Notes: generated by a model not told the origin, from the letters alone. 64,000 nucleotides of DNA from an uncultured bacterium (GCA_964604705.1 CAZSAP010000014.1:1-64000), one strand, 5' to 3'; positions 5,014 through 56,655 are shown, counted from the stretch's first letter. A program made the numbers and translations.

Positions 5014-7587
5014 TTAACGTGCTATGGCCAGTTTTACTTTCCGTGTGCTTTGGCCGGGTATGTTCACCTGAGCCAGATAGACACCCGGTGCGACCGACTT
5101 GCAGTCCCAGATCACCACTTGATTTTTCCCCGCACCGAGGCGCGCGGAGACCACGCTCACTGGCTCCCCAGTCAGGTTGTACAACGCAATCTTAACCTCG
5201 GCGGCTTGATCCAGGGTCATGACAAAAGTGACCTTATCCTTGGCAGGATTGGGGTACGCTTGGAAGGCTATGGCCGGTCCCCCGACCTGAGGGGTAGCTG
5301 TCCGGGTCACAGTAGGTGTGGGTGTCGGGGTGAACGTAGGTGTCGCCGTAGGTGTCATGGTCACGGTGGGTGTGGGACCGCTGACCACCACGTTGTTGGC
5401 AAACGTAGACGTGTTGTTGTTCGTATCTGTACTCAGGGCCGTAATCACATCACCGTCCACCGGGCCCGAAGGAACGACGCTCCAGGCCCCACTGCCGTTG
5501 GCCACCGTCGCACCTACGAAACGCAAGCTTCCGCCCGGAAGCCCCACGGCTCGATCGGCAAGGAAAACTTCGATTTTGTCATTGGCGGCACTGGTCCCCG
5601 AAAACTGACAGGCATTGCCCGAGGTAATGCTCGGAGCGGCCTTGTTAAGGTTGCCGTTGGAGCTCAACAGGATGCCCGCCGAGGTAAACCCACACACGGT
5701 GTTGCCAAACAGTCCATTCGAATACGCATTCGCGCCGCTCACCTGAATCCCGTTGGTCCCGCCGACAATCAAGTTCCCCTGGTGGGTGTCGGGCAGACCG
5801 ATCAAGTTCTGGGTTCCTCCGTTGAATATAATGCTGTTGGTAAACTTGGTGACCGGTACAGTCCCGTCGGCCAAGACATTGAACCAGTTGCCCACGACCG
5901 TGTTGCCAGCGGCTGACTGCACGTTGATGCCGGTGTTCGTGCCGCAAAAAATATTGCGCTCGCCGGGTGCCGTACCTCCGATCTTGGTACCGTAACCGTA
6001 GAGCAACAGGGCGTCTTGCGTGTTGGCCAACACCGCGGTCCCACTCGCGTTGGTCCCAAAGAAGTTGCCCAGGACTTGGCAGCCGCCGTTGTCAAGAATC
6101 AGCCCATCTGTGGAATTTCCAGCGATGACATTACCCAAAGTAGCATCGCTCCCGCCAATCAACACGCCTGTGCCTGTAATGCGGATACCGATGCTGTTGG
6201 GCAGTGCCGCAGTTCCACTCGGACTCACGCCAATCCAGTTCCCCTGAATGCGGCTGCCCGGTGCGGAGTTAATGTAAATGCCCATGCGCCCGGGAATACT
6301 TTGGCCTGCGATGATGTTGCCGTACTGGTGCGTCCCGTCGGTGTTGGCTCCGCCAATCAAAGCCGTGCCGCCGTAAAGACCCACACCGCAATACGAATTC
6401 CCTAAAAACGCGGCACCGCTGTTGTCCGTGCCAAGGTAGTTGCCGGAAACACTGTTTCCCGCGCCGCCATGAAGTTCAACCCCGTTGCCGCCTCCGCCAT
6501 TGTACCCGTTTCCAGCTATGATGTTACCCTCAGGTGCCGCCGCGGCCCGGTTGCCGCCAATCAAGCTGTCACTCATGTTGTAACTTACAAGACCCACTTG
6601 GTTGGCCAGCACAACACTGGAGCTGTTTACACCAATACGGTTCGCCTGGATTTTATTGCCCGGCGAATCGTCCACATAAATTCCATGCGAATTATTCCCG
6701 GCAATGACATTGCCCAACCCGGCGCCCGGTTCGCCTATGACATTATTTCGGCTCATCGAAAACCGAATCCCCGTTGCGTTCGCCACGCGGGTACTTTGGT
6801 TGGCAGAAAGACCTATCACGTTTCCGTTGATCGTATTCCCGCCCCCGTATTGCACCATGATGCCAGTCCCGGGATTGTGTCCGGAAATAACATTGCCTCC
6901 GCCGCCCATGGTGCCGCCCACCAACGTGGCGTACGAGTTGTACATAAAAACGCCAGTGGAGTTAGGCAGAGCCGTGATCCCGTTGCTGGCCAAACCAATA
7001 TAGTTGCCCTGAATGCGAGTGCCAAACGCTCCGTTGACATAAATGCCCTGGTACGAGTTCCCGGCAATAATGTTGCGCTGGCTGGGGCCGCCACCAATAA
7101 TCGTGTTGCGCCCGTAGGTCATGATGCCGTACTGGTTGCCCCGCCCGGCGGTGTTGGCCCAGTCTGTGCCTATGCAGCAATGCCGAATCTCGTTGTTGTT
7201 GGAGTTTGATGCTATGTACACCCCGCTGGACCCGTCCACAATCGCCAAGTCCGACAAGACGCTGCCGCTGCTTCCCGTGCTTAACACAAACACATCCCGC
7301 GTCCGATCGTACGCACCCACGGTGGCCCCCCGTCCTTCCACCGTGATGTTGCTGCCAAAGTACAGTGCGGTAAACACGGTGATGGAGTTCGCCGAGGTGA
7401 TCACAATGGTGTCCGCGTCGGCATTGGCATTGGCCTGCGCCACTGCCCACGGCATGGATCCGGTTAAGGCCGGATCACACGACCCGTTGGTCACGGTCAG
7501 CGTGGCCGCCTGGCTTACCCCCAACGTGCCCAACCCACACACCAAGACAACCAAGCCCATATGAAAGCCCTTACGAAAAGCATTCAT
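5014..7587 (-). CDS. Large secreted right-handed parallel beta-helix repeat protein with Pro/Thr linker and T9SS-type CTD
   Basis: Signal peptide. Dozens of GNxIxGN / NxxIGxxxxG beta-helix rungs. PT-rich linker TPTVTMTPTATPTFTPTPTPTVTRTATP. CTD AYPNPAKDKVTF...IALYNLTGEPV...WDCKSVAPGVYLAQVNIPGQSTRKVKLAIAR. Confidence 0.75.
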   Translation of the reverse strand: MNAFRKGFHMGLVVLVCGLGTLGVSQAATLTVTNGSCDPALTGSMPWAVAQANANADADTIVITSANSITVFTALYFGSNITVEGRGATVGAYDRTRDVFVLSTGSSGSVLSDLAIVDGSSGVYIASNSNNNEIRHCCIGTDWANTAGRGNQYGIMTYGRNTIIGGGPSQRNIIAGNSYQGIYVNGAFGTRIQGNYIGLASNGITALPNSTGVFMYNSYATLVGGTMGGGGNVISGHNPGTGIMVQYGGGNTINGNVIGLSANQSTRVANATGIRFSMSRNNVIGEPGAGLGNVIAGNNSHGIYVDDSPGNKIQANRIGVNSSSVVLANQVGLVSYNMSDSLIGGNRAAAAPEGNIIAGNGYNGGGGNGVELHGGAGNSVSGNYLGTDNSGAAFLGNSYCGVGLYGGTALIGGANTDGTHQYGNIIAGQSIPGRMGIYINSAPGSRIQGNWIGVSPSGTAALPNSIGIRITGTGVLIGGSDATLGNVIAGNSTDGLILDNGGCQVLGNFFGTNASGTAVLANTQDALLLYGYGTKIGGTAPGERNIFCGTNTGINVQSAAGNTVVGNWFNVLADGTVPVTKFTNSIIFNGGTQNLIGLPDTHQGNLIVGGTNGIQVSGANAYSNGLFGNTVCGFTSAGILLSSNGNLNKAAPSITSGNACQFSGTSAANDKIEVFLADRAVGLPGGSLRFVGATVANGSGAWSVVPSGPVDGDVITALSTDTNNNTSTFANNVVVSGPTPTVTMTPTATPTFTPTPTPTVTRTATPQVGGPAIAFQAYPNPAKDKVTFVMTLDQAAEVKIALYNLTGEPVSVVSARLGAGKNQVVIWDCKSVAPGVYLAQVNIPGQSTRKVKLAIAR

Positions 7588-7786
7588 GAAAAACCTCCGA
7601 GAATAAAATCCAAACCCAGAAAGTATACCACACGAGTCATAAAATAATCCGTTCCCAAACTGAAGTTTCCGCCCTACAGATATAGCACCTCCGCCTTAAG
7701 TTCTAGGCTGAGGCTATGCAGCAGGTTCAACGTTCACAGAAGACGCGCGCCAAGGGAAAGCTTTTTTTAAAAGTTGCGTCTGTTCT

Positions 7787-8001
7787 AGGCTGAGGCGACG
7801 AGATAAAGCTTTTTTGAAATCTGTGTCTCCTATGCTCGCGAACCACGTTTGCAAACGGAACACCCATAACGTCTCCCCCTGCGGTTAAACATTCGGACGC
7901 GTTTGAAACGGCCGGGGAGCATGTGATGCCGTGTACGGCCAAAGAGGCGGTGCGCAGGCTATTGAGACGCAGCTTTCAAAAAAGCTTTATCTCGTCGCCT
8001 C
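7787..8001. repeat. MITE-like element: 39-bp near-perfect inverted repeats flanking a 137-bp core
   Basis: 7787-7825 (TGAGGCGACGAGATAAAGCTTTTTTGAAATCTGTGTCTC) and its reverse complement at 7963-8001 (2 mismatches). Sits in the 520-bp divergent intergenic region between 7587 and 8112, immediately after a copy of the CTGTTCTAGGCTGAGGC motif. Confidence 0.5.
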
Positions 8002-8052
8002 ATTTCATACTTAAAAGGACCACAATCTTAAATCTAAAGATTTCACTTGATT

Positions 8053-8076
8053 GTTCGCTTTTCGTTCGCCTATAAT
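8053..8076 (+). promoter_or_regulatory. Candidate SOS (LexA-type) box overlapping the promoter of the DUF72-imuB-dnaE2 operon
   Basis: Direct repeat GTTC-GCTTTTC-GTTC (GTTC-N7-GTTC) at 8053-8067, followed 3 bp later by a perfect TATAAT at 8071-8076. Sits 36 bp upstream of the DUF72 start. The GTTC-N7-GTTC architecture is the alphaproteobacterial LexA box type. Its use in this lineage is unproven. Confidence 0.35.
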
Positions 8077-8111
8077 AAACCATACTCAAATTACCTTTAA
8101 GGACTTATCCC

Positions 8112-8927
8112 ATGAAACCAGTTACCCAGCCCTGGCGCGTTGGCACCAGCGGCTATTCGTACACCGAGTGGATTGCCGCCGGGTTCTACCCGTCCGGCAC
8201 CCCCACGGGCAAGATGCTCCCGGTCTATGCCCGCACCTTTTCCACCACCGAGCTCAACCACACGTGGTACCAAATGCCCAAGTCGGACATGATCGAGCGG
8301 CAGCGCCAGCAGGCGCCGGCGGGCTTTCGCTTTGCGGCCAAGCTCACCCGCACCCTCACCCACGAGGTGGACCCCGCGCTCTGGCGCAGCCAAGCCGCGG
8401 CCTACCGCCAGGGCATTGCGCCCCTGCTCCAGGCCCAGCAACTCGCGGCCGTGCTGATCCAGCTGCCGCCCTCCTTTGACCGCTCGGCCGCGCACCGCCA
8501 GTACCTCGGCGCCTTGCTCACCGAGCTCCAGGGCCTGCCTCTGGCCGTGGAGTTCCGCAACGTGGAGTGGCTCACGGACAAAGTGTTTGCCGACCTGACC
8601 AAGCGGAAGGTCACGCTCGTCAGCGTGGACGAACCGCAGCTCCCCGGCCTGCTCCCGCCCCTGGATGTGATCACCAACCCCGACCTGCTCTACTTCCGCT
8701 TTCACGGGCGCAATGCCAAGGGCTGGCGCTCCGGCAACATGCAGTCGCAGTTCGACTACGACTACTCCCGCGCCGAGCTGCAGGAATGGGGCGAGCGCAT
8801 GACCGTCATGGCCGGGAAGGCCACGAGCGGGATCATCTTCTTCAACAACCACGTCCGCGCCCAGGCACCCCGCAATGCCCAGACCATGCTCCAGGTGCTC
8901 ACCGAACACGGGATCGAGGCGAGCTGA
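8112..8927 (+). CDS. DUF72 family protein (YecE-like)
   Basis: N-terminal VGTSGYSYTEWIAAGFYP...YARTFSTTELNHTWY matches the DUF72 signature. The stop is 1 nt before the imuB-like start. Confidence 0.8.
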   Translation: MKPVTQPWRVGTSGYSYTEWIAAGFYPSGTPTGKMLPVYARTFSTTELNHTWYQMPKSDMIERQRQQAPAGFRFAAKLTRTLTHEVDPALWRSQAAAYRQGIAPLLQAQQLAAVLIQLPPSFDRSAAHRQYLGALLTELQGLPLAVEFRNVEWLTDKVFADLTKRKVTLVSVDEPQLPGLLPPLDVITNPDLLYFRFHGRNAKGWRSGNMQSQFDYDYSRAELQEWGERMTVMAGKATSGIIFFNNHVRAQAPRNAQTMLQVLTEHGIEAS

Positions 8928-8928
8928 C

Positions 8929-10107
8929 ATGGAACGCGCCATTGTGCACCTGAACATCGCGGACTTTGCCGTGGCCGTGGAACGGACCCTGGACAGCCGC
9001 CTGCGCGGGCGTCCGGTCATCATCGCCCCGGCCGGCGAGGCCCGCGCCACGGTCTACGACATGAGCGAGGAGGCCTACGGCGCGGGCGTGCGCAAGGGGC
9101 AGCCGCTCCCGCGCGCCCTGCGCGCCTGCCGCGACGCCGAGCTCTTGACGCCGCACCCCGAACGGTACGAACACGCCATGCGCGCGTTTCTCAACTGCAT
9201 CCTCCCGTACTCCCCGCGCATTGAAGCCACGGGCGTCCAGGGTCATGTGTTCGTAGACACCACAGGCACCGAGCGCCTCTTCGGCACGGCCATGGACATT
9301 GCCTGGCGCATCCGCAAAACCGCCCGCGCCGAACTGAACCTCAACCCCATCTGGACCGTGGCCCCCAACAAGCTGGTGGCCAAAGTCGCCAGCCGCATGG
9401 TGAAACCCGTGGGCGAGTGCCTGGTGGAAGCCGGCGATGAAGCCGCGTTCTTGGCGCCGCTCCCCGTGCACCTGCTCCCCGGCTTGGAGGCTGAGGATCT
9501 GGCGCGCTTGCGCGAGTACCGCCTGGGCACCATAGGCGATGCGGCGCGCTGGACCCTGCCGCAGCTCGCGCTGCTCTTCGGCACCCGGGCCCGGCATCTC
9601 AGCGAGGCGTTTCGCGGCCTGGATGCCTCGCCTGTCCTCCACGTGGGAGAACAGCCGCCGACCGTGGCTGGGGACCACGCCTTCGGCGAGGACACCAACG
9701 ACGTTGCGCAGGTCCTGGCCGCGCTCCAGCTCCTGGCCGAACACGCCGGGCACGCCCTGCGCGAACAAGGACAGATGACGCAGCGCGTGGGCGTGGTGCT
9801 CGACTACTCGGACGGCGTGCGCGTTGTGCGCCAAGCCGCCCCGCCGAACCCTACGTCCAATGACTTCACGCTTTTTGATCACGCCCGCCGGGCCTTGGAC
9901 CTGGCCTGGACGCGCCGGGTGCGTCTCCGCCACCTGCGCGTGCTCTGCGACCGGCTCTGTTTCCCGCCCGCGCAACTGGACTTGTTCGGGGAGAGCACGC
10001 CGGACGAAACCCGTCGCGCAGGCCTGGTCGCGGCCATGGACCGCATCCGCGGACGCTTCGGCAGTGACGCCATCCATCTGGGACGAAGCTTGGCCGCTTT
10101 GACATGA
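8929..10107 (+). CDS. imuB: ImuB-like catalytically inactive Y-family DNA polymerase
   Basis: Y-family fold, but the DinB catalytic motif DMDAFFASVE is replaced by LNIADFAVAVE (both Asp lost). Its stop overlaps the dnaE2 start (ATGA at 10104-10107). The longer ORF starting at 8875 overlaps DUF72 and is less likely. Confidence 0.75.
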   Translation: MERAIVHLNIADFAVAVERTLDSRLRGRPVIIAPAGEARATVYDMSEEAYGAGVRKGQPLPRALRACRDAELLTPHPERYEHAMRAFLNCILPYSPRIEATGVQGHVFVDTTGTERLFGTAMDIAWRIRKTARAELNLNPIWTVAPNKLVAKVASRMVKPVGECLVEAGDEAAFLAPLPVHLLPGLEAEDLARLREYRLGTIGDAARWTLPQLALLFGTRARHLSEAFRGLDASPVLHVGEQPPTVAGDHAFGEDTNDVAQVLAALQLLAEHAGHALREQGQMTQRVGVVLDYSDGVRVVRQAAPPNPTSNDFTLFDHARRALDLAWTRRVRLRHLRVLCDRLCFPPAQLDLFGESTPDETRRAGLVAAMDRIRGRFGSDAIHLGRSLAALT

Positions 10108-13100
10108 ACCTCCTGCTGGCGTACTCGCATTTTTCCCTCATGTGGGGTACGGCCTCCCCCGAAGAACTCTGCCGCGCGGCGCGGGAAAAAGGGTACACCC
10201 ACCTGGCCCTGATTGACCGCAACAACCTCTACGGCCTCTGGCCTTTTCTCGCGGCCTGTGCGCGGGTAGGTGTGACGCCCGTGGTCGGCGCCACCTTGGA
10301 CGACCCGAACTCCCGGGCCTCGGTCACGGTCTTGGTTGAAAACGAGACCGGCTACAAAAACCTCTGTGGCCTCATCTCCCAGCGCCACATGCACGAACAG
10401 TTCCAACTCGCGGAGGCTTTGTCCTCCCACCGTGAAGGACTCTTGCTCCTGACCCCTCACGCGCCCTTGCTGCGTACGCTGCACGCCTCCGGCACACGTG
10501 TCTTAGGCGCCCTGCAGGTTCTGCCCGGAGACCATTCGTCCGAGCTGCGCCAAGCCGCGCGTGCGCTGGAACTCCCGCTGGCGGCCACAACCCAGAGTGT
10601 CTTCATCCGCCCGGACGATTACGCGATCCACGCCCTGCTCCGGGCCATGGAGGGCAACACCTCGCTCTCCCGCGTAAAGCCGGAGGACCTTGCGCCCCAG
10701 AGCGCCTGGATACCAACGCCCGAGGAGTTCCAACGCCGGTTCGAGGTCTACCCCGAGGCCCTGCGCACCACACAGAGCCTGTTGGCGCGCATCACGTTTG
10801 ACGGCCCGCACCACGGCACCGTGCTGCCGCCCTGGACGAACGCGCACGACCCCAGCGCCGAGGCCACGCTGCGCGCCCGAGCCTACGCCGGTGCCCAAAG
10901 ACGCTACGGCGAGGATTTATCCGAGACCGTGGTGGAACGGCTGGAGAAGGAACTGCGCATCATTGCCGAGAAGGGATTTTCCAGTTACTTCCTGGTGGTG
11001 CAAAACATCATTCAGCGCAGCCCCCGCATCTGCGGACGCGGCTCGGGCGCCGCCTCGCTGGTCGCGTATGCCCTGGGCATTACCAACGTCTGCCCGATCA
11101 AACACAACTTGTACTTTGAGCGCTTTCTCAACCCCGGGCGCATGGACCCGCCGGACATTGACGTGGACTTTGCCTGGGATGAACGCGACGCCGTGCTCCA
11201 ATCCGTGCTGGAGCAATACGCCGGACACGCGGCCATGGTCTGCAACCACGTCTGCTTCCAGCCCCGCATGGCCATTCGCGAAGTGGCCAAGGTTTACGGC
11301 CTGACCGACCGCGAGATTGGCCAAGTCTCCAAGCGCCTGCCCTGGCTCTGGCCCGACGAGGAGGCTCCGGATTTGCAGGCCCGCCTGGAAGCCCTGCCTG
11401 AACTTAAGACCCTGGACTTCCCGCACCCCTGGCCCGAGATCCTCCGCCTTGCGCAGCAGATCATGGGACGCCCGCGCTACATCTCGGTGCACTCCGGCGG
11501 CATGGTCATCACCCCCGGCCCGCTCACGGACTACGCTCCGCTCGAGCGCGCCCCCAAGGGCGTGCCCATTCTCCAGTGGGAAAAAGACGGGACCGAAGAG
11601 AGCGGCTTGGTGAAGATAGACCTGCTGGGCAACCGCAGCCTGGGCGTGATCCGCGATGCGCTGGCGCAGATCCGCGCCCAAGGCCTCACGTTCGACGAGA
11701 CCCTGTGGGAGCCCGAAGACGACGCGGCGACTCAGCGCGCGGTGGCCGAGGGCAGAACCATGGGCTGCTTCTACATCGAAAGCCCGGCCATGCGCCTGCT
11801 CCAGCAAAAGACCGTAAAGGGCGACTTCGAGCACCTGGTCATCCACTCGAGCATTATCCGACCGGCGGCCAATGAGTACATTCACGAGTACGTGCGGCGC
11901 CTCCGCGGCGGCACCTGGGACCCGCTCCATCCTTTGCTCGCCGATGTCCTGGATGAAACCTTCGGCATCATGGTCTACCAAGAGGATGTTTCCAAAACCG
12001 CCGTGGCGCTGGCCGGTTTCAGCCCGGCCGAGGCCGAGGGACTGCGCAAGATTCTGACCAAGAAAGATCGCGCGCACCGCCTGCGCGACTACCGCGAACA
12101 ATTCTTCACCGGCGCCCGCGCGCACGGCGTGGCCGAAGCTGCGATCGAGGCCATCTGGTCCATGATTCTTTCGTTCGACGGTTACAGTTTCTGCAAACCG
12201 CATTCGGCCAGCTACGCGCGGGTCTCGTTCCAGGCCGCGTATCTAAAAGTTCATTATCCGGCGGAGTTCATGAGCGCGGTCATCAGCAACCAAGGCGGGT
12301 TCTACAGCACCTTTGCCTATGTGTCCGAGGCCCGGCGCTTGGGGTTGACCGTGCTCCCGCCGGATGTCAACCAAAGCCAGATCCGCTGGCAAGGGGCTGC
12401 GCGCCACCTGCGAACCGGCTTGCTCTCCGTGCAAGGGCTAAGCCAGTTGACGCAAGAGCGCCTGGTGCAGGAACGTCGCCAGGGTGCGTTCCGCGATTTC
12501 GAAAATTTTGTGGACCGGGTCCGTCCGGACCAAGAGGAAGGACGGGCGCTGATTCATGCCGGAGCCTGTGACTCCCTGGCGCCCGGGCAAGACCGCACGG
12601 TATTTTTGTGGGCCCTGGCCAACCGCACACGCTCCCGCCAAGGTGCGAAAGACAGTGGACAGACCGCGGACCTGTTTGCGCCCGCCACGAGCTTGACCCG
12701 CCCCCCGATTCCCCCGGCGCACGAGATTGACCGGCTGCGCCTGGAATACCGCAGCCTGGGATTTTTGTGCGACCGCCACCCCATGTCCCTGCTCGCCGGT
12801 ACACTGAAACAGCACAAGCTCACCCAAGCGCGGGATCTCGGCAAGCACGTGGGGGCGCGCATCCGCCTGGCCGGATGGCTGATCACAGCCAAGGTTGTGC
12901 CCACGCGCCAAGGCGCCCCCATGGAGTTTATTACCTTCGAGGATGAAACCGGCGTGGTGGAGACCACTTTTTTTCCCGAAGTCTACCGGCGCTTCTGCGA
13001 CCGCCTGGTCTGGAACCGCCCGTTTCTCTTGACCGGCGTGGTGGAGGAAGACTTCGGTGCGCTCACCCTGACCGTGGAAAGTGTCTCGCCGCTCTGGCAC

Positions 13101-13112
13101 GAACGCACTTAA
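10104..13112 (+). CDS. dnaE2: Error-prone DNA polymerase III alpha subunit DnaE2
   Basis: 1002 aa. N-terminal PHP domain (LLAYSHFSLMWGTASPEELC...THLALIDRNNLYG), polymerase core (GRGSGAASLVAYALGITNV...PDIDVDF), short C-terminus without a tau-binding region. Classic imuB-dnaE2 pairing. Confidence 0.85.
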   Translation: MNLLLAYSHFSLMWGTASPEELCRAAREKGYTHLALIDRNNLYGLWPFLAACARVGVTPVVGATLDDPNSRASVTVLVENETGYKNLCGLISQRHMHEQFQLAEALSSHREGLLLLTPHAPLLRTLHASGTRVLGALQVLPGDHSSELRQAARALELPLAATTQSVFIRPDDYAIHALLRAMEGNTSLSRVKPEDLAPQSAWIPTPEEFQRRFEVYPEALRTTQSLLARITFDGPHHGTVLPPWTNAHDPSAEATLRARAYAGAQRRYGEDLSETVVERLEKELRIIAEKGFSSYFLVVQNIIQRSPRICGRGSGAASLVAYALGITNVCPIKHNLYFERFLNPGRMDPPDIDVDFAWDERDAVLQSVLEQYAGHAAMVCNHVCFQPRMAIREVAKVYGLTDREIGQVSKRLPWLWPDEEAPDLQARLEALPELKTLDFPHPWPEILRLAQQIMGRPRYISVHSGGMVITPGPLTDYAPLERAPKGVPILQWEKDGTEESGLVKIDLLGNRSLGVIRDALAQIRAQGLTFDETLWEPEDDAATQRAVAEGRTMGCFYIESPAMRLLQQKTVKGDFEHLVIHSSIIRPAANEYIHEYVRRLRGGTWDPLHPLLADVLDETFGIMVYQEDVSKTAVALAGFSPAEAEGLRKILTKKDRAHRLRDYREQFFTGARAHGVAEAAIEAIWSMILSFDGYSFCKPHSASYARVSFQAAYLKVHYPAEFMSAVISNQGGFYSTFAYVSEARRLGLTVLPPDVNQSQIRWQGAARHLRTGLLSVQGLSQLTQERLVQERRQGAFRDFENFVDRVRPDQEEGRALIHAGACDSLAPGQDRTVFLWALANRTRSRQGAKDSGQTADLFAPATSLTRPPIPPAHEIDRLRLEYRSLGFLCDRHPMSLLAGTLKQHKLTQARDLGKHVGARIRLAGWLITAKVVPTRQGAPMEFITFEDETGVVETTFFPEVYRRFCDRLVWNRPFLLTGVVEEDFGALTLTVESVSPLWHERT

Positions 13113-13236
13113 ACACAGACCACCCCACCGAAACGTCCCCAACATTTTCAACCGAGAAATCCTTGCGCTGACTGAAAATAACCGCTACACTTTAGGCCAA
13201 GCAAAGATGACTATTTTTTTCGTTTAAGGAGTCTTT

Positions 13237-14631
13237 ATGAGACACTCGCGGTTCATGCTGCATGTTTGTACGCTGGCTTTGGCGCTCGGAGTCCTGACGC
13301 TGGCCACCTCCGGATGGGCAGCCAACATTATTATTGATCACACCAATTGGGACTGGTACGTCACGCAACCGCAGTCGGTCAGCGACAGTGTCGCGGCCCA
13401 AACGCTCTTTTTCGCCCATGCGTCCGTAGGCGCCAATGTTATGTCGGGTTTTGCCGACCTGCATGGCACCGATGCCACCAAATACCCGCTGGCCCAAACC
13501 AGCGCCAACGGCACACCGCCGGCCAGCACCGTGCCCGGCACGGTTTATGAATACAACCGGGGCAATCCTGTCTGGAGCACCAAGGTCACTGATTTTACCA
13601 CCTACATCCAAAACGGCTGGCGGACACCCAAGGCGACGTTTGCCATGAACAAGTTTTGCTACATTGATCAAACGGCAGACTGGACCGTGTATCGCGATGC
13701 CATGCTGGCCCTGGAAGCGGCGTATCCGGCGACCCGCTTTATTTACTGGACCATGCCCTGCACCACGGCCTCGGATGCCGACGAAGCCTTGCGCGCCCAA
13801 TTCAACACCAACCTCAGAAACTGGATCGCCACCCAAGACGGCAAACTCCTCTTTGACATTGCCGATATCGAGTCCTGGTCTCCGGCGGGCGTGCACCAGA
13901 CCTTTATCTACAACACCGCCACGTACGAACACATGTACAGTCCCTACTCCTCCGACGGCGGGCACTTGAACCAGACCGGGTACGATCGCATGGCCACCGG
14001 ACTGTACTCGCTGCTGGGCCAGGCTACCTTGCCTTTGGTGACAGGCTCCCCCACCGCCACCGCCACAACCACCCTGACCTTTACATCCACACCCACGCGC
14101 ACCTCCACGCCGACAGCCACCCCCTCGCCCACGCTGACCCGCACGGCGACCGTGACCCCGACGGGGACACTCACAGCCACACCCACGCCCACGTCCTCGG
14201 CCACGTCCAGCGCCACCTTAACTCCGGTTCTTTCGGCCACACCGACGCTCACCACGACGCTTACCGGCACCACCACCGCGGTGCTCACCTCCACACCGAC
14301 CTACACGGCCACGGACGTCTCCACGGTTACGCCTACGTGTACGCCCACACCGGCCCTTAGAAACACCTCCGGCGACACGATCCGCGCCTATCCCAACCCG
14401 GCGCGCGGCCAAGTGCGTTTCGACCTACCCACGTCACCCGCGGCGGCGATTGAACTGAAGGTGTTTAATGTCCAAGGGGAGCGGGTCGGAACAAAACGAC
14501 TCACCGCCGGCGACGGGACCAGCACAACCGTCCTCTGGGATTGCACCGCTCTGGCCCCCGGTGTCTACTTTGCCCACATCGAGGTCGCTGGAGAAAAAAC
14601 CCAAACCATTAAATTTGCCGTTCGTCACTAA
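13237..14631 (+). CDS. Secreted SGNH/GDSL-like hydrolase domain protein with PT linker and T9SS-type CTD
   Basis: Signal peptide. FFAHASVGAN (block I-like) and SDGGHLNQTGYDRMA (block V DxxH-like). Thr/Pro-rich linker. CTD AYPNPARGQVRF...VFNVQGERV...WDCTALAPGVYFAHIEVAGEKTQTIKFAVRH. AAGGAG RBS. Confidence 0.6.
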   Translation: MRHSRFMLHVCTLALALGVLTLATSGWAANIIIDHTNWDWYVTQPQSVSDSVAAQTLFFAHASVGANVMSGFADLHGTDATKYPLAQTSANGTPPASTVPGTVYEYNRGNPVWSTKVTDFTTYIQNGWRTPKATFAMNKFCYIDQTADWTVYRDAMLALEAAYPATRFIYWTMPCTTASDADEALRAQFNTNLRNWIATQDGKLLFDIADIESWSPAGVHQTFIYNTATYEHMYSPYSSDGGHLNQTGYDRMATGLYSLLGQATLPLVTGSPTATATTTLTFTSTPTRTSTPTATPSPTLTRTATVTPTGTLTATPTPTSSATSSATLTPVLSATPTLTTTLTGTTTAVLTSTPTYTATDVSTVTPTCTPTPALRNTSGDTIRAYPNPARGQVRFDLPTSPAAAIELKVFNVQGERVGTKRLTAGDGTSTTVLWDCTALAPGVYFAHIEVAGEKTQTIKFAVRH

Positions 14632-47678: not shown

Positions 47679-48647
47679 ATGAAAAAGAGGACAATAATAA
47701 TTTTGTTTATTATTACTGTACTCTTTCAACAAACATCAATTTTCGCAGATGACTTTACGTATGATAGTAATGAACTCAGAGAAACTATTGAGCAAAGTGA
47801 ACAGTATAAAACAAATCCATCAAAATTTTTACAAGATGATTTTGGCCTTCCCTTCCTTGCAAGTATCGATTCTACTAATACCTTTTTCTTAGGTCTGGAA
47901 GAATTGATTAAATCGAATAAGTATTCTGGAATGCAACGCGAATATTTGCTTTTCGCATATATTTCATATTGCATTAAGCTTGCCGATATCAAGCAAGCAC
48001 ACCTAATCTACAAAAAAGCAATCAGGCAATTTCCAAATTCAAAAATTCTTACTTACTACCGAAGATATTTTGACGAACTCAAACATTTTGAAATAGCTTT
48101 ACTTACAGTTAAACAAATTAAAAATAAGCCGAAAATGTTATGGGAAACCGCCAGTATTACAAAACAATTTATCGATTCATTTAAATGTTTCTTTATTTCT
48201 GATGGGATCTACACTGATTATTCGTTCTATCATAATGCTCTATTCTCTTTATATGAACTTTATCCAAATAGTACATATGCGTCACAAGCCGCATTTATTC
48301 TTCTCGATGAAAACGCCGAGCCATTTAATCGGAAATACAAGCTTTACTCTGAGTTAGATAAAATTACGTATTTTAAATCTTTATTAATCAAGTTCCCCAA
48401 TCATCCATATATTGAAAACATCTATTACTGTATTGGTAACGGTTACTTCAAGTATGGTTGTGAAACTGAAAAGCTAACTGATCAAGATCGATTAAAGTCC
48501 CTTACCCAAGCAAAGCAAACATTCCAAACACTCATTCATAAATTTCCTGAATCCGATTTTGTGAGTTCATCTACTGAACATATAGCACGAATTGATTCTA
48601 TGATTGCTCAGGGTCAACTTTTTCAACCTGATGAAGGTGGCGATTAA
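47679..48647 (+). CDS. Secreted TPR-like repeat protein, AT-rich
   Basis: Signal peptide. Repeats of the form AIRQFPNS / LIKFPNHPY...IGNGYF / LIHKFPESDF. About 33% GC versus ~60% in the core. Confidence 0.55.
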   Translation: MKKRTIIILFIITVLFQQTSIFADDFTYDSNELRETIEQSEQYKTNPSKFLQDDFGLPFLASIDSTNTFFLGLEELIKSNKYSGMQREYLLFAYISYCIKLADIKQAHLIYKKAIRQFPNSKILTYYRRYFDELKHFEIALLTVKQIKNKPKMLWETASITKQFIDSFKCFFISDGIYTDYSFYHNALFSLYELYPNSTYASQAAFILLDENAEPFNRKYKLYSELDKITYFKSLLIKFPNHPYIENIYYCIGNGYFKYGCETEKLTDQDRLKSLTQAKQTFQTLIHKFPESDFVSSSTEHIARIDSMIAQGQLFQPDEGGD

Positions 48648-48793
48648 GACATTGTTGGAGGCGGATATCTTCTTGCTCCAAACTAACTGATCACTGTACT
48701 AAAGGAGGTGTTTCCGTTCAATTGGTTTACAATTATCGGTTTATTCGATTATCCAAAAATTGTCCCCTTACCCAAAATCGCCTAGCCAACTCT

Positions 48794-49798
48794 TTATTCA
48801 GTCAATCCTATTTGCCAAAGCATCGCAACTTGCCATCCCTCTTGCTTCAAATAGCCAACAATTTCTCGGGTTAGTTTGAATCCATTCGCTTTATATAAAG
48901 TAAATAGTTTCTCCACCAAAGGATAATACGCTGAGGTTTTATTTTCTTTTAAAAAGAGCTCATAGCTTTGTACTGCTTCTGATCTTATCTTTGGCTTTGA
49001 AAACTCAAACACTGGGGAATTATCAATCCCTCCAATATAAATACCAAACATGAACTTAAGTTCTTTCGCCAACGCCTCACGCTCGATAAAATTTGGATGT
49101 GCCTTAATAAACTCTTCTCGCCAGATGATGTTTTGACGTAATTTATCCCAACTGCAACGCAGAGCTGCATCTTCAAGAAGGGGGGAACTATTATTCCGCT
49201 CTTCCCAATGCTGCCTTGCTAAATATTTTTTCAGGTCAAATTCAAACCCGGCGAGTACTGTTTCTAGTAGATAGTTGCTATCTATTTTATTGAAAATGTA
49301 ACCTTCACTACCATAAAAAGAAATACCATGCTTGGTCATGTCGCGAAGGACCGCATGTTCAGCTTGATATTTCACTCTCATTTCGCCAACATAACCTGGC
49401 TTTACATTAAGCGACCTTTCTATATTTACATCGTGTTCTTGACTAATTGGCTGCTCTTTAGCATGGAAAAAATTAAACGCCTGCTGCATGGTTGGGTTTG
49501 AAGAAATATCGAGTTTATGATTACATTCATTTAGATACTTCCGAGCTATGCAGAAGCCTGTTTCCGCCCATTCAGAATTTTTGAAAAACGTGCTTCGGTA
49601 CAGGGCAGTGATTTCATCAATAGCTTGAAGCGGAGGTTGGGTGTTGGTAATCTCCTCCACCTTCTTTTCAAAGTCACCCAATACGGTCTCAGCCTTATTG
49701 TTTGCCCAGACTACCGAAGCTATTAGTAGCATCCAGCTCGTTAAAAAAACAAACCACACTTTAATCAGCATCTCGTCTCCATAAACTGAAGGTGCCAC
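48794..49798 (-). CDS. Membrane-anchored hypothetical protein, AT-rich
   Basis: N-terminal TM helix (WFVFLTSWMLLIASVVWA), no motifs recognised. Low GC. Start 49798 or the internal Met at 49771. Confidence 0.5.
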   Translation of the reverse strand: MAPSVYGDEMLIKVWFVFLTSWMLLIASVVWANNKAETVLGDFEKKVEEITNTQPPLQAIDEITALYRSTFFKNSEWAETGFCIARKYLNECNHKLDISSNPTMQQAFNFFHAKEQPISQEHDVNIERSLNVKPGYVGEMRVKYQAEHAVLRDMTKHGISFYGSEGYIFNKIDSNYLLETVLAGFEFDLKKYLARQHWEERNNSSPLLEDAALRCSWDKLRQNIIWREEFIKAHPNFIEREALAKELKFMFGIYIGGIDNSPVFEFSKPKIRSEAVQSYELFLKENKTSAYYPLVEKLFTLYKANGFKLTREIVGYLKQEGWQVAMLWQIGLTE

Positions 49799-49826
49799 AC
49801 ACTATTTGGAACAAAACGTGGACGGC

Positions 49827-49860
49827 GTTAACTTTGTAAACGTAGGCACATCTATCCGCC
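49827..49860 (-). promoter_or_regulatory. Conserved palindromic promoter/operator-like motif (copy 1)
   Basis: GTTAACTTTGTAAACGT...ATCCGCC. About 30 bp upstream of the minus-strand gene start. Family consensus GTCAACTTTGTAAAGTTAAAC (core AACTTT-gta-AAGTT palindrome). Gene-sense reading contains TTGAC(A). Confidence 0.5.
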
Positions 49861-49887
49861 AAACAATGTCTCGAACATATTATTCTG

Positions 49888-49910
49888 CGGGCGTATGTAA
49901 TACGCCCCTA
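49888..49910. repeat. Palindromic element copy GGGCGTATGTAATACGCCCCTAC plus a 35-bp extension shared with 55162-55225
   Basis: Member of the GTAGGGGCGTAT-TGC-ATACGCCCCTAC family. The following ACGGCGCATGTTGTACGCCTCACGACT is repeated at 55190-55222. Confidence 0.7.
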
Positions 49911-50137
49911 CACATTTAACGGCGCATGTTGTACGCCTCACGACTGTTTGGTGCTTTGGGGGACGGAAACAACTTAGCAACTTAGACAAGACCTGAACCG
50001 TTAAACCCTTTTTCTATGTAGCCAGCGCAGGACTCGATCTATTCGCTTATGCCCCTATAAACGTCTACTTTCAGCTTATACTTTCCATTTTGATTTCTGG
50101 TCTTGCATCCGCCAACCAACGTCTCTGACTGCTAGTG

Positions 50138-50156
50138 GGCGTATGCAATACGCCCT
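50138..50156. repeat. Palindromic element copy (GGGCGTATGCAATACGCCC)
   Basis: Shortened member of the family. Confidence 0.6.
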
Positions 50157-50223
50157 CAGCCGGTTTGCCAAAAGGTGTCCGCTACCAAAATTTCAACAAT
50201 GAGTGAATTTATTCTACTTTTCA

Positions 50224-51726
50224 CTATCGTACAATGGCAATCTTGCCACTACCCAATTTTTTATACCGACCATTTGTTTTGGTTCGGGCCCGGTAGGTAT
50301 ATACGCCTGACGCAACATTGCCGCATTCCCAGACTGGAGCTACGGTGGAATCACTTTGTTGGATTCTAGCAATGCGTTCGCCACACATATTATATATTTC
50401 AGCATCAAACTCAATTCCATCGGTTTCCTGAAATGCAAAGGTCACTTTGGTATGAGCCGGGTTGGGAAACGTAATGACCGGTTTATCAGCTGTGAACGTA
50501 AGTGGCCATGACTTGGGAGGAACTTCTTTAACTGTCATTATCCGAATCTGTGGGTAGGATGCATTTTCCGCAGCTTCACTCCACCCCAGGTAAAGTTCGT
50601 TGTGGAAGATATCCAGATAAGGATTTTGGGCGTGGATATTTGGGTTAAGGTTGAACGAATTGGCTGACGCTCCAAACAACGCCCAAGATCCATTTTCAAA
50701 TTTTTGTAAGTAAATATTGTCATTTTCAATCCAGGTCAGATAAATAGTCTGGTCCAGTGCAGTAAGGATCGGCGAAGCGGCGTACGTTTCACTTATTTTT
50801 ATAAGCGGCGGTAATAATTCCCAGGCCGTTCCGTTATAACGCTTAACAACAATATTCGACGATTCCCGCCAAGTAACATAAAGGCTCTCGCCAATTTCCT
50901 TTAGACAGATTTGATAGGCGGATTTATTCTCAGAAATACTGATATCAAGGTTTAACCCTCCGCCATCAACACTCTCCCAGGCCGTGCCATTAAATCGTTT
51001 CAAAAACAAAACGGCAGTTTTTTTATTATCAACGTATTCAAGCCACGCTGCATACGGGACCCCTTTATATGCACATATTTTCGGATAAGTCCCGCTGTTG
51101 CTCGGATTGTTCACGCACGATCCCCCTACGGCTTCCCAATCTGTTCCATTAAATTTCTTTACATATATTTTTGTAGCGCCATACGCGACTTTATCTTCAC
51201 ACCAGGTTATATAGGGTTGGTCATTAATAATCTGAATATCCGGTTGGCTTGCGCTATATCCATCTAAATTTTTTAGTCCCCCACTTCCCATCAAACTCCA
51301 GGAGCTACCATTATAATATTTTGCATATACTTGAAACGGATAGTAATTATTTTCAGCCCATGTGGCAGTAACGCCATTGTTCCAGATAGCAATTTGGGGT
51401 TGTGATGCTGTCTCGTCAACATTTACGTTTAAACTGTCCGCTCCAAGAACCTGCCAATCTGTACCGTTATACTTTTTCACATACGCTTGCCAGGACTTAA
51501 AATTCCAAGCACCATGCATTGAATGTTCCTGCCACGTGCAATATAAAAACTCATTGTTGCTGCAAAAATCCGGCGAATAGGCTTCTTCCTGTGAATTCAT
51601 ATTCAAACTCATGCTTACTTTCCGAGTTTTTACAGCGGCCTGACACGGCAGTGCCCAAACTATCAACATTAATATCGCTGTCCATCGCGATATATATTTT
51701 TTTAATGTTTTGATTTTTAATTGCAT
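50224..51726 (-). CDS. Secreted repeat (beta-propeller-like) protein with T9SS-type CTD
   Basis: Signal peptide. Six repeats of Y(V/A)KK(F/Y)NGT(D/A)W(E/Q)xxG. CTD ITFPNPAHTKVTF...IYNMCGERI...GVYTYRARTKTNG...KIAIVR. About 42% GC. Confidence 0.65.
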   Translation of the reverse strand: MQLKIKTLKKYISRWTAILMLIVWALPCQAAVKTRKVSMSLNMNSQEEAYSPDFCSNNEFLYCTWQEHSMHGAWNFKSWQAYVKKYNGTDWQVLGADSLNVNVDETASQPQIAIWNNGVTATWAENNYYPFQVYAKYYNGSSWSLMGSGGLKNLDGYSASQPDIQIINDQPYITWCEDKVAYGATKIYVKKFNGTDWEAVGGSCVNNPSNSGTYPKICAYKGVPYAAWLEYVDNKKTAVLFLKRFNGTAWESVDGGGLNLDISISENKSAYQICLKEIGESLYVTWRESSNIVVKRYNGTAWELLPPLIKISETYAASPILTALDQTIYLTWIENDNIYLQKFENGSWALFGASANSFNLNPNIHAQNPYLDIFHNELYLGWSEAAENASYPQIRIMTVKEVPPKSWPLTFTADKPVITFPNPAHTKVTFAFQETDGIEFDAEIYNMCGERIARIQQSDSTVAPVWECGNVASGVYTYRARTKTNGRYKKLGSGKIAIVR

Positions 51727-51854
51727 AAATAAGCTCCAATCAACCTTTAGATTAGGGGGCGGAATTATTTTATTAGTCTACGGAAATTCGCCTGCTAACG
51801 AACTTTTATAAAAGAGAGCCCCTAAAACGAATAAACCAAGTCCGGCCTCCGTCA

Positions 51855-52475
51855 CTAAATATCTAAATGCATCCCCAGGTCGCCACCAAAAATAACCTTC
51901 TGTTGGACATCCGTAGCCCGCTCCCAGTCTAGGTATGCGGGCGGGCAAAGTATCGACTGATAGGCCAACGCCATCTGCCGCGCTGCCTCACTGGCCGAAA
52001 CCTGACCAGTGGCAGTACCCAATCCTGGGCAGGCGAGCACATTTATTTTCCGAGTTTGGGTTTGGTTATGCTGATGGACGGCTAAAAGCGCAGCGCGCAT
52101 TGCCAGATACACATAATCCGTATGTGCTATAGGCATGGGCACACGCATGGTTGGTGTATGCGCAACAAAGGGATGCTTGGGATCGCCGGTTTCTACCACA
52201 AACGAGGTTCCCACCGGCTGCTCCCCAAGGTAGTCCGACACAATCTTCGCCTGAACCCGCTCCTGGAGTTGCATGCCGAAAAAGTCCCGAATCGCCAAAT
52301 CCACCCCGCCGTCCATAAGGCCAAACGAGTTGGCCGCGCTCACCAAGCAGTCAAACTCCTGTGTTTCAAAAAGGCCGCAAACCACTCGAACGTCAGCGTA
52401 CTGGGCAAACTCACGCTGCCACGCTTGCGTTAGTTCCAAGTTTGGGGCCACCAGAAGCACTCGAACTTTGTCCAT
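51855..52475 (-). CDS. Stand-alone macro domain protein (ADP-ribose/O-acetyl-ADP-ribose processing)
   Basis: DCLVSAANSFGLMDGGVDLAIRDFFG, GTSFVVETGD.KHPFVAHTPTMR and LACPGLGTATGQVSASEAA match the three macro-domain signature blocks. Confidence 0.8.
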   Translation of the reverse strand: MDKVRVLLVAPNLELTQAWQREFAQYADVRVVCGLFETQEFDCLVSAANSFGLMDGGVDLAIRDFFGMQLQERVQAKIVSDYLGEQPVGTSFVVETGDPKHPFVAHTPTMRVPMPIAHTDYVYLAMRAALLAVHQHNQTQTRKINVLACPGLGTATGQVSASEAARQMALAYQSILCPPAYLDWERATDVQQKVIFGGDLGMHLDI

Positions 52476-52713
52476 GACGCCTCATGAAATGAATATAAAC
52501 TCGTTTGTTTGTGTTTATTTTCTATTTTTAACTACTGTACTTACCCTGCTTGACTAGTGCTGCTTCTCTAGAGCTTTTGGTGATTGGTTCTGATGACTGT
52601 TTCTCTTGGACTTCTGTGCGACTTATGTAAAACTATAGTTCTTTTGCTGGCTTAATTCAAGAGGTTTGACGTCCTCGGAATTGCCTTGTTCCCCTCCTAG
52701 CGTCCTTTATCGT

Positions 52714-55059: not shown

Positions 55060-55094
55060 CCTAATTCCCCTGAAGTTTTTTAATGGGGGACGGT

Positions 55095-55126
55095 GTCAAC
55101 TTTGCAAACTTAAACCACCTATCCTC
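55095..55126 (-). promoter_or_regulatory. Conserved palindromic promoter/operator-like motif (copy 2)
   Basis: GTCAACTTTGCAAACTTAAACCACCTATCCTC, 36 bp upstream of the BspA-like gene start. Confidence 0.5.
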
Positions 55127-55161
55127 ATTCACCCCTTATGTCTAAACGCACTGCTTTTTTT

Positions 55162-55225
55162 GGGCGTATGCAATACGCCCCTACACATTCAACGGCGCAT
55201 GTTGTACGCCTCACGACTATTTGAT
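55162..55225. repeat. Palindromic element copy plus shared 35-bp extension
   Basis: TTTTTTT-GGGCGTATGCAATACGCCCCTAC-ACATTCAACGGCGCATGTTGTACGCCTCACGACT. Same composite unit as 49888-49945. Confidence 0.7.
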
Positions 55226-55316
55226 GCTTCTGCTGTTTGAAATATTCTGATGAAACTGCTCTAGGACTGCCAGGAGAATCATATGCCTTTTACTCTGGGT
55301 GGACAAGTACTTTTCC

Positions 55317-55838
55317 TCACGTCCCTGCGGTAAACCCGATCTTCCTTTTCTTCGACGCTTCAGGCTCAGGGCGCAGGTCGTCGAGGACCTGAAACACTTC
55401 GTCTATTTGCCGATCATGTTTGAGTAACTTCACCTCATGCCGGTTAAGCCGCTCAAGTAGATGCCGTTGGCTCTCTTGACTGTTTCGCAACTGAATAAAC
55501 GCACGCATTATTTGAACGTTGACCATGATGGCTCGTTGACTTCTTAAAACGCTCGACAACATAGCCACTCCGGGTTCGAGAAAAACAAACGGCAAAAATC
55601 CGCCGAAACTTCGTTTGCTTGGTATCACACTTTGTGATACCAACGCTTCTGCTTCAGACTTAGCTAGTTGAAAAACGAAATCCTCAGGAAATCTGTGGGC
55701 ATTGCGTTTTACTTGCTGGCGTAGAGCAATGGCTTTAACCCCATACAGTTCTGCCAGGTCGCGGTCCAACATAACCTTCTGCCCGCGTATAAGATGGATT
55801 TTTCTTTCAATGCGTTCAACCGGGACTAGTTCCGACAT
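55317..55838 (-). CDS. ORF6N-domain protein (KilA-N-like DNA-binding, phage antirepressor-type), copy A
   Basis: MSELVPVERIERKIHLIRGQKVMLDRDLAELYGV...VKRN..RFPEDF...GVAMLSSVLRS..AI.VN matches ORF6N. The long N-terminal extension in the ORF track (VCNTPLRIRTKC...) is translation of the palindrome and a conserved leader, so the start is placed at MSELV. Confidence 0.75.
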   Translation of the reverse strand: MSELVPVERIERKIHLIRGQKVMLDRDLAELYGVKAIALRQQVKRNAHRFPEDFVFQLAKSEAEALVSQSVIPSKRSFGGFLPFVFLEPGVAMLSSVLRSQRAIMVNVQIMRAFIQLRNSQESQRHLLERLNRHEVKLLKHDRQIDEVFQVLDDLRPEPEASKKRKIGFTAGT

Positions 55839-55924
55839 ACTCACTCCTGATAGAGATTGGGTTTTTATTTGGACAGGAGTGTTGCGGAAAAATCGCAGGT
55901 AGAAGATACATTTTGTTCGTATTC

Positions 55925-55951
55925 GTAGGGGCGTATTGCATACGCCCCTAC
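55925..55951. repeat. Perfect 27-bp palindrome GTAGGGGCGTATTGCATACGCCCCTAC
   Basis: 12-bp stems with a 3-nt loop. Directly abuts the stop codon of ORF6N copy B. Confidence 0.75.
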
Positions 55952-56469: not shown

Positions 56470-56655
56470 TGCAACTCCTGTACGAAATTATATTAATCAT
56501 TTCGACAGGAGTGTTGCGGAAAAATCGCGTGCGGGTGATGAATTATTATCAAAAGAGGGCAACCAATGTCTCAAGCCAATAGCTAATACAAATTTCTGTT
56601 GTTGAAATGAGGTGAGTGTATAGTTCCCCTATAAACCTAAAAAATCACAACGACA

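Follow-up and report, generated by a model that had tools for sequence, protein, structure and literature searches.

A DUF72, inactive Y-family polymerase, and DnaE2 cassette with a putative LexA-type direct-repeat box in an uncultured bacterium

The question raised by positions 8053-13112 of GCA_964604705.1 CAZSAP010000014.1:1-64000 is how a three-gene operon of an uncultured bacterium is controlled and what its first gene contributes. The whole stretch of 64,000 nucleotides (nt) is referred to as the window, and positions are counted from its first letter. The operon consists of a DUF72 gene, a gene for a Y-family polymerase, and dnaE2, and it is preceded by a GTTC-N7-GTTC direct repeat. The first-pass annotation had described it as a DUF72-imuB-dnaE2 operon without imuA behind a repeat with the architecture of an alphaproteobacterial LexA box. 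The best reading of this repeat is that it would be a LexA operator acting in trans, because the 17-nt box is conserved in orthologous cassettes that lack lexA and is also found in lexA and imuA promoters elsewhere. The whole reading, to which we give a probability of about 0.65, is that a LexA encoded elsewhere sits in the promoter spacer and represses, that DNA damage releases one coupled transcript, that the inactive Y-family polymerase is an adaptor for DnaE2, and that DUF72 takes part in lesion processing or recognition. The features of the operon and its promoter are as follows.

8047..8052, plus strand: -35-like hexamer TTGATT, read directly; the sole σ70-like site in 7500-13400 (10/12 matches, 18-nt spacer)
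8053..8069, plus strand: direct-repeat operator GTTCGC-TTTTC-GTTCGC of the GTTC-N7-GTTC type, a putative LexA box, from direct reading and comparison
8071..8076, plus strand: -10 hexamer TATAAT, read directly, beginning 3 nt past 8067
8099..8103, plus strand: Shine-Dalgarno-like AAGGA, 8 nt 5' of the DUF72 ATG (8112); AAGGAC is likewise found 5' of DUF72 in the related cassette L004
8112..8927, plus strand: DUF72 protein of 271 amino acids (aa), first gene of the cassette, a TIM-barrel putative DNA-lesion endonuclease (PF01904, E=8e-58)
8929..10107, plus strand: inactive Y-family polymerase (iPolY; gbDinB2-like, 392 aa) with IMS and IMS_C domains, ImuB-like in role and without ImuB-C
9973..9987, plus strand: QLDLF, a motif of the β-clamp-binding type, iPolY residues 349-353, located in the translation
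10024..10086, plus strand: C-terminal LVAAMDRIRGRFGSDAIHLGR, RecA-NT-like motif of iPolY, compared with RLLTAMDNIRSKFGDSAIYPGR (PMC6511836 supplement)
10104..13112, plus strand: DnaE2-type C-family polymerase, 1002 aa, with PHP, DNA_pol3_alpha, finger, HHH_6, and OB domains

The intergenic sequence 5' of 8112 was read directly as ...CACTTGATT-GTTCGCTTTTCGTTCGC-C-TATAAT-AAACC..., which gives the promoter order TTGATT (-35), GTTCGCTTTTCGTTCGC, C, and TATAAT (-10). The GTTC-GCTTTTC-GTTC element that had been noticed at 8053-8067, 3 nt before a perfect TATAAT, is present, and the box extends to 8069. The true repeat unit is GTTCGC, a hexamer that stands at 8053-8058 and again, 11 nt further on, at 8064-8069. 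The 17-nt box fills the 18-nt spacer of the promoter and is a GTTC direct repeat with a 7-nt spacer that overlaps the core promoter. GTTC-N7-GTTC alone is not enriched in the 64 kb (1 match against 2.2 expected), its matches with one mismatch in the window are at chance (44 against 52 expected), and so is the count of σ70-like sites in 7500-13400 (1 against 0.9 expected). The short motif alone is not improbable, and its significance must therefore come from comparison.

The search with iPolY returned thousands of homologues at 57-72% identity. For the genome survey, one genome per GTDB species was scanned with the cassette and 80 loci were returned (denoted here by L numbers), almost all of them from Desulfobacterales or Thermodesulfobacteriota metagenome-assembled genomes; the closest genome homologues are those of Desulfobacterales. 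DUF72, iPolY, DnaE2, and LexA were mapped in these loci, and the architecture counts rest on the 69 loci with enough upstream sequence.

58 of 69 loci: lexA-DUF72-iPolY(-dnaE2)
7 of 69 loci: lexA-iPolY-dnaE2
4 of 69 loci: DUF72-iPolY-dnaE2 without lexA

DUF72 is present in 62 of the 69 loci and lexA in 65. The adjacency of DUF72, for which the first-pass annotation had suggested a synteny survey, is thus not specific to this strain.

The operator of the lexA-bearing cassettes differs from that of the window. TTTACATTGACATTTACAT was found upstream of lexA in 63 of the 68 lexA-bearing cassettes with up to 2 mismatches (Desulfobacterales). It is a TTTACAT-type (TTACAT) direct repeat with an embedded TTGACA -35, often preceded by extra TTACAT copies, and the LexA of the cassette presumably uses it as its operator. 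A similar LexA direct repeat, TTACACATATTTTWTACATA, is reported for Balneolaeota (PMC7739468); a prior description of a TTTACATTGACATTTACAT-type operator was not found. Its sites were seen in L005-L084 and L215, for example at 4395-4415 of L002 and at 4455-4480 of L215. In the window, TTTACATTGACATTTACAT is absent even at up to 4 mismatches, and lexA is also absent.

The two lexA-less cassettes closest to that of the window carry its box. L004 (iPolY 68% identical) has TGTTCGCTTTTAGTTCGC upstream of DUF72 and L085 (iPolY 65% identical) has TGTTCGCTTTTTGTTCGC. The 17-mer upstream of DUF72 in the window, L004, and L085 varies at the middle base only. In the three-way alignment, an 18-nt block is the sole conserved upstream segment and its flanks are unalignable. 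No synteny was found between the window and L004, L085, or L002. The tree of concatenated iPolY and DnaE2 places the window, L002, L085, and L004 in one clade with 100% bootstrap support, and all three lexA-less members of this clade carry TGTTCGCTTTTNGTTCGC as their sole conserved upstream block. The ancestral cassette is read as having its own lexA and a different operator, and the state of the window as derived. The LexA proteins tied to the GTTCG box share the helix-3 sequence S(P/L)AT(V/I)H(Q/K)H, whereas the cassette-borne LexA proteins have SH(A/S)AV.Q, a difference consistent with two DNA specificities.

Another element was seen in the lexA-less, Myxococcales-like contigs L051 (~5120-5140) and L053 (~5110-5130). 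Both have a conserved CTGAACAT(T/C)CG(T/A)CCAG element that abuts the -10, straight after a TTGACG-N17-TAGACT/GATACT promoter. We take it to be reminiscent of the myxobacterial LexA box, and it would be a third operator on one cassette. The cassette is hence found with at least two, and probably three, operator states: its own lexA with the TTTACAT repeat, a LexA in trans with the GTTCGC repeat, and CTGAAC...CCAG in the Myxococcales-like contigs.

The JGI and ENA metagenomes were scanned for GTTCGCTTTTNGTTCGC, which gave at least 120 loci, 111 of them non-redundant among the matches listed; the counts that follow are among these listed matches. Their neighbours were typed by profile searches of six-frame translations and by Pfam scans. 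SOS genes adjoin 19 of the 111 matches, far above the expectation for random positions. Five different lexA genes have the 17-mer in their promoters, namely those of the AT-rich L126 and L148 and those of L170, L184, and L192, which have 55-64% GC. It also lies a few tens of nt (27-33 nt or similar) upstream of 12 RecA-domain imuA genes, six of which are visibly followed by imuB and dnaE2 (L138, L152, L177, L179, L180, and L204), so that these canonical operons carry the 17-nt box of the window. One further match stands beside another Y-family gene (L154) and two are near DUF72 genes (L136 and L091). In L136 (701-2380), the box is located between a divergent imuA and a pair of uracil-DNA glycosylase (UDG) and DUF72 genes. 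In L091 (2008-3484), the box is ~450 nt from the DUF72 gene. These two loci appear to link DUF72 independently to a regulon of this LexA type.

The layout of the promoter is also found elsewhere. The L184 promoter reads TTGCG-box-TACAAT-ATG(lexA), which is the layout of the window. L160 and L174 read box-TATAAT, and L091, L094, L109, and L168 read TTGAC-box-CTATGAT. The LexA of L126 is patescibacterial, its best named homologues being those of Kuenenbacteria, Falkowbacteria, and Parcubacteria. In further lexA operons of Patescibacteria, the promoter reads TTGAC-GTTCGCTTTCTGTTCGG-TATAAT and is followed by a second box in inverted orientation. In L209-L214 (for example L211 2475-2540), the patescibacterial lexA comes second in its operon, after 23S_rRNA_IVP (four-helix-bundle), and a Y-family polymerase gene comes last; the promoter has box-TATAAT and, shortly after it, a second, inverted box, GAAC-N7-GAAC. 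The extended form GTTCG(C/T)-N5-GTTCG(C/G) and the -35/box/-10 layout thus match both the patescibacterial and the GC-rich metagenomic lexA promoters.

Other matches of the scan have different neighbours. In L098, L115, L141, L129, and L110, the 17-mer precedes genes for small secreted SLT/lysozyme-like proteins or a dnaB helicase gene; among the SLT/lysozyme-like cases, three orthologues have it at +53/54 nt and one at 19 nt in divergent orientation. These genes may be lineage-specific regulon members. Tandem arrays of the 11-mer GTTCGCTTTTT, for example GTTCGCTTTTTGTTCGCTTTTTGTTCGC, were seen in human-gut and other contigs (L089, L099, L101, L113, L123, L162, L111, L117, L150, and L190) with no recognisable SOS gene near. 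Such arrays inflate the raw box count, and not every instance is therefore a LexA site.

The operator class itself has been reported. GTTC-N7-GTTC is the LexA box of Alphaproteobacteria (PMC4951493, PMC7739468). According to passages of PMC4951493, PMC7739468, and PMC12700426, Acidobacterium capsulatum shares this box, reportedly through lateral acquisition of lexA, and direct-repeat LexA motifs are cited for Patescibacteria and Balneolaeota. The element of the window resembles those boxes in its GTTC direct repeat, its 7-nt spacer, its overlap with the core promoter, and its position upstream of a translesion synthesis cassette. It differs from them in its host, a lineage without a described SOS system, and in that binding by LexA is predicted in the window. 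The Mfd protein of the window matches a few metagenomic proteins at 60-83% identity, of which a single one bears an organism name, 'candidate division FCPU426' (64%), and the next tier of homologues drops to 43% identity. Many of the flanking proteins carry sorting domains of the type IX secretion system (T9SS). On the Mfd comparison, the host is placed in the candidate division FCPU426 lineage and not clearly in the Fibrobacteres-Chlorobi-Bacteroidetes (FCB) group, to which the first-pass annotation had likened it. That annotation was right about the architecture of the box, as seen from the lexA and imuA promoters above; such a box is, however, less unexpected than that annotation had stated, given what those passages say of Acidobacterium and Patescibacteria. 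The conservation of the box, its position, and its behaviour elsewhere suggest that it is functional in this host.

The three genes form a coupled operon as had been described. The iPolY ATG at 8929 follows the DUF72 stop after a 1-nt gap, and the TGA of iPolY overlaps the dnaE2 ATG in ATGA at 10104-10107. The Y-family protein has lost catalytic Asp residues, as had been claimed: in the alignment with E. coli DinB, D8 and D10 have become N9 and A11, and D103 and E104 have become Q104 and H106. N9, A11, and H106 are invariant in 22 homologues. Because the catalytic carboxylates are replaced and the replacements are invariant, the protein is read as a catalytically dead polymerase. Residues 3-333 align with DinB and ~55 residues are left, which end 6 residues past the RecA-NT-like motif. 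ImuB-C is considered absent because this short tail holds just QLDLF and LVAAMDRIRGRFGSDAIHLGR before the protein ends. The name ImuB therefore stands for a dead Y-family polymerase and not for a canonical ImuB, an identity that was rejected in favour of a gbDinB2-like inactive PolY. QLDLF is taken as a clamp-binding motif from general knowledge of QL[SD]LF motifs, and P346, P347, Q349, L352, and F353 around it are invariant in the homologue alignment. DnaE2 retains the polymerase motif PDIDVDF.

This gene set corresponds to a catalogued cassette type. Timinskas & Venclovas (2019; PMC6511836) reported ImuA-less variants with 'gbDinB2-like' inactive PolYs from δ-proteobacteria, Nitrospirae, and spirochaetes, in an operon type that never has imuA, and proposed that RecA itself fills the role of ImuA. 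The operon of Desulfococcus oleovorans is given there as 'LexA->{1}->iPolY->DnaE2' with the RecA-NT-like tail RQERQTRLLTAMDNIRSKFGDSAIYPGR. The tail of the window protein, LVAAMDRIRGRFGSDAIHLGR, matches RLLTAMDNIRSKFGDSAIYPGR of D. oleovorans ABW66046.1 (RecA-NT-like; PMC6511836 supplement). The window shares with these operons an inactive PolY of ~390 aa without ImuB-C, a nearly identical RecA-NT-like C-terminal tail, dnaE2 directly downstream, one extra gene before PolY, and the lack of imuA. It differs from them in having the GTTCGC direct-repeat box and neither a lexA in cis nor the TTTACAT-type operator, and its FCPU426-lineage host is not a delta-proteobacterium, a Nitrospira, or a spirochaete. 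Compared with the canonical imuA-imuB-dnaE2/imuABC operons of Caulobacter, Mycobacterium, Pseudomonas, and Myxococcus, it likewise has a dead Y-family adaptor with a clamp-binding motif and an error-prone DnaE2, and both operons are thought to be controlled by LexA; however, it lacks the RecA-like ImuA and ImuB-C and has a DUF72 gene. Profile searches found no ImuA or LexA/S24 homologue in the six frames of the 64-kb window (ImuA at E<=1, with a hidden Markov model built from four metagenomic ImuA proteins), in agreement with the reported absence of imuA. The cassette is accordingly classed, on its gene order and motifs, as the gbDinB2-like iPolY-DnaE2 type, of which the absence of imuA is the normal state. 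The idea that DUF72 occupies an imuA slot was thus mistaken, as absence is the rule in this type.

The intervening gene of these operons was left unnamed and undiscussed in PMC6511836. The unnamed '{1}' gene is DUF72 in most cases, since DUF72 precedes iPolY in 62 of the 69 loci. The window protein is a full-length member of the DUF72/TM1631/YecE family (PF01904; PDB 1VPQ, 1VPY, and 1ZTV), with a match over profile positions 1-216 of 217 at 196.5 bits, well above the Pfam cut-off of 25.3. It is homologous to TM1631 (PDB 1VPQ, E=2e-35), and a profile search of PDB sequences with DUF72 returned DUF72 structures only. Here it is translationally coupled to an iPolY-DnaE2 pair, in a position that is kept across ~60 genomes. 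Mean column identity is 72% for the cassette-linked DUF72 (45 orthologues) against 65% for iPolY. TM1631 has been proposed computationally as an endonuclease-IV-like lesion-binding enzyme (PMC3828134), and DUF72 has been described as a UVDE-like TIM barrel that is enriched beside damage-inducible polB2 operons (PMC11791011). No link of DUF72 to imuB or dnaE2 was found in the searchable literature; an apparent match for DUF72 and imuB was rejected because the paper concerns DUF721.

The cassette is probably a mobile module that is commonest in Desulfobacterales. L215 is a plasmid of a cultured host, Desulfosarcina ovata 28bB2T (NZ_AP021877.1 57098-70267), that is MOBQ-mobilizable and carries the full lexA-DUF72-iPolY-dnaE2. 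This cassette adjoins traA and an IS200/IS605 transposase. Its genes are annotated as 'DUF72 domain-containing protein', 'hypothetical protein' (iPolY), and 'DNA polymerase III subunit alpha' (DnaE2). In the window, the GC content of the cassette is 0.66 and that of its third codon positions 0.80-0.90, compared with ~0.52-0.59 in the flanks and ~0.52 in most of the window; GC above the flanks was also found in L004, L002, and L087. Horizontal acquisition of the cassette is likely, because its GC content is high, a relative is plasmid-borne, and its distribution is centred on Desulfobacterales.

The proposed mechanism is as follows. In the undamaged cell, a host LexA of the class that binds direct repeats would sit on GTTCGC-N5-GTTCGC in the TTGATT/TATAAT spacer and occlude RNA polymerase. 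Upon DNA damage, active RecA would bring about self-cleavage of LexA and the promoter would fire, as in the SOS paradigm. DUF72, iPolY, and DnaE2 would then be made from one coupled transcript, for which the 1-nt gap and the ATGA overlap are observed. By analogy with ImuB and with PMC6511836, iPolY would act as the adaptor; the motifs are observed, and QLDLF would tether DnaE2 to the β clamp while the tail with its RecA-NT-like motif would bind RecA instead of ImuA. DnaE2, whose polymerase motif is kept, would carry out error-prone synthesis. DUF72 would most likely recognise or incise damaged DNA to feed or complement bypass, and this is the weakest step. As to its evolution, the sub-clade of the window would have lost lexA and, with a GTTCGC direct repeat in the promoter, come under a LexA encoded elsewhere.

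Several points weigh against this reading. No second 17-mer was found in the 64-kb window with up to 3 mismatches allowed, and no other SOS genes were found there; the radical-SAM gene at 45568 does not resemble SplB and lacks the box. The scan pattern fixed 16 of the 17 bases, which makes the box 'consensus' partly circular. Many of the 111 listed matches have no recognisable SOS gene near them, and some are tandem repeats or coding sequence. With 95% bootstrap support, the tree places L002, a cassette that keeps a lexA and the TTTACAT box, within the clade that has the GTTC box. The operator state therefore does not simply follow descent, and a single gain or loss is not enough to explain the history of the operators unless there was recombination; this pattern fits selection of the operator by whichever LexA is available. 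The subtype call of DnaE2 is soft, as its NCBIfam scores of 584 bits for 'error-prone DNA polymerase' (cut-off 939) and 626 bits for DnaE are both below the cut-offs. Seven related cassettes lack DUF72, and we know of no DUF72 protein for which nuclease or other biochemical activity has been shown experimentally. Lastly, mfd in the window is GC-rich too, so that the GC content of the cassette is merely suggestive of transfer.

The rival that survives best is that the box is a relic. The operator of a donor-lineage LexA would have travelled with the cassette into a host without a matching LexA, where the near-consensus promoter would be constitutive. The Desulfosarcina plasmid copy and the elevated GC content in the window, L004, L002, and L087 are signs of mobility that this explanation would use, the nearest ImuB relatives are not from FCPU426, and no lexA was found in the 64-kb window. 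However, three cassettes have kept the box intact although their proteins have diverged to 65-72% identity and the rest of their upstream sequences can no longer be aligned. This speaks for ongoing selection, at least in most of the three. Constitutive expression of a mutasome is also usually counter-selected. We consider a relic box unlikely.

DUF72 might otherwise replace ImuA structurally as the third subunit of the mutasome. Its gene ends just 1 nt ahead of the Y-family gene, 62 of the 69 cassettes have it, and the protein is better conserved than iPolY. The fold speaks against such a replacement, as DUF72 is a TIM barrel and a TM1631 homologue whereas the ImuA of canonical cassettes is RecA-like. 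Seven cassettes keep lexA-iPolY-dnaE2 without DUF72, and the RecA-NT-like tail of iPolY suggests that RecA fills the role of ImuA (PMC6511836). The occurrence of DUF72 with UDG in L136 and near polB2 (PMC11791011) fits a repair enzyme rather than a dedicated subunit. Structural replacement was rejected on the fold, the cassettes without DUF72, and the RecA-NT-like tail, and we hold it to be improbable. The first-pass annotation had offered substitution or co-function for DUF72; of the two, co-function as a repair enzyme is the more plausible, because DUF72 has no structural relation to ImuA, which is RecA-like, and because the seven cassettes lack it.

A regulator other than LexA could also bind a repeat with an 11-bp period, for example a winged-helix response regulator of the OmpR/PhoB type, which typically binds tandem hexamers one helical turn apart. 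The 6-nt repeats and the 5-nt A/T-rich spacer fit this geometry, and a receiver-domain gene is directly upstream of the L085 box. However, the L085 protein has a receiver domain only and no DNA-binding domain, and neither the window nor L004 has a regulator of this kind alongside the box. The five lexA promoters with the 17-mer, a signature of LexA autoregulation, and the twelve imuA operons among the matches listed also make this very improbable. A chance motif inside an ordinary constitutive promoter would agree with the unenriched counts of GTTC-N7-GTTC and of σ70-like sites, but it is scarcely credible and was rejected because L004 and L085 have the 17-mer at the corresponding position, where ~1e-7 per locus is expected (16 fixed bases, 100 nt), and because the motif is strongly associated with SOS genes in metagenomes.

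The operator reading with LexA in trans can be extended to a more specific proposal, which we regard as possible but doubtful. DUF72 would be the lesion-recognising or lesion-incising nuclease of an ImuA-independent iPolY-DnaE2 mutasome that is moved between phyla by plasmids and re-wired to the SOS response of each host by operator swaps among the three states. On this proposal, the window would also give the first view of a LexA regulon of the direct-repeat type in candidate division FCPU426.

The polymerase pair and the operator class are already known, and the cassette is a recognisable, probably mobile variant of the SOS mutagenesis cassette. The new findings are that the conserved extra gene is named as DUF72 and recurs near the same LexA box in unrelated contexts, that one mobile cassette is found with at least two, probably three, alternative SOS operators, and that a GTTCG direct-repeat box is present in a genome of the FCPU426 lineage. 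If the reading is true, the widespread DUF72/YecE/TM1631 domain of unknown function gains a testable context, since it would be conserved as the translationally coupled companion of two polymerases for error-prone synthesis that are controlled by the SOS response, which complements the recent note on DUF72-polB2 clustering (PMC11791011). The cassettes would also form a natural series in which one cassette has different damage-response operators in different hosts, and would thus illustrate how LexA regulons are rebuilt after horizontal transfer. For the uncultured FCPU426, the box would be a first hint on SOS regulation. Current models are not overturned; a catalogued cassette type and a known operator class are extended.

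Some further observations were made on the related cassettes and on the window. L023 (JAIWHJ010000056.1), which is labelled 'Promethearchaeota archaeon', has lexA-DUF72-iPolY-dnaE2 at Desulfobacterales-like identity, and this contig is most likely a binning contaminant. Many Desulfobacterales cassettes have intergenic spacers of 100-900 nt between the cassette genes, unlike the tight coupling in the window. Those spacers hold short tandem or palindromic repeats such as CTGACACCTGAAACC and GAACCCTGAACC; repeat-filled spacers were seen upstream of lexA in L016, L030, L033, L042, and L049 and in many iPolY-dnaE2 spacers. In the window, 48000-60000 is a low-GC island (0.38-0.44 against ~0.52 elsewhere) with genes for two ORF6N-domain proteins, a DUF285-repeat T9SS protein, a Macro-domain protein, an M48 peptidase, and a DUF3592 protein, and it is probably a second foreign region. 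A 212-nt element at 7791-8002, ~45 nt 5' of the -35 of the cassette, is bounded by inverted repeats of 54 nt with 83% complementarity. Its predicted fold is far more stable than those of shuffled sequences (-112.7 kcal/mol, z = -10.4), and it has no Rfam match. This element could be an insertion resembling a miniature inverted-repeat transposable element, a structured RNA, or an insulating terminator.

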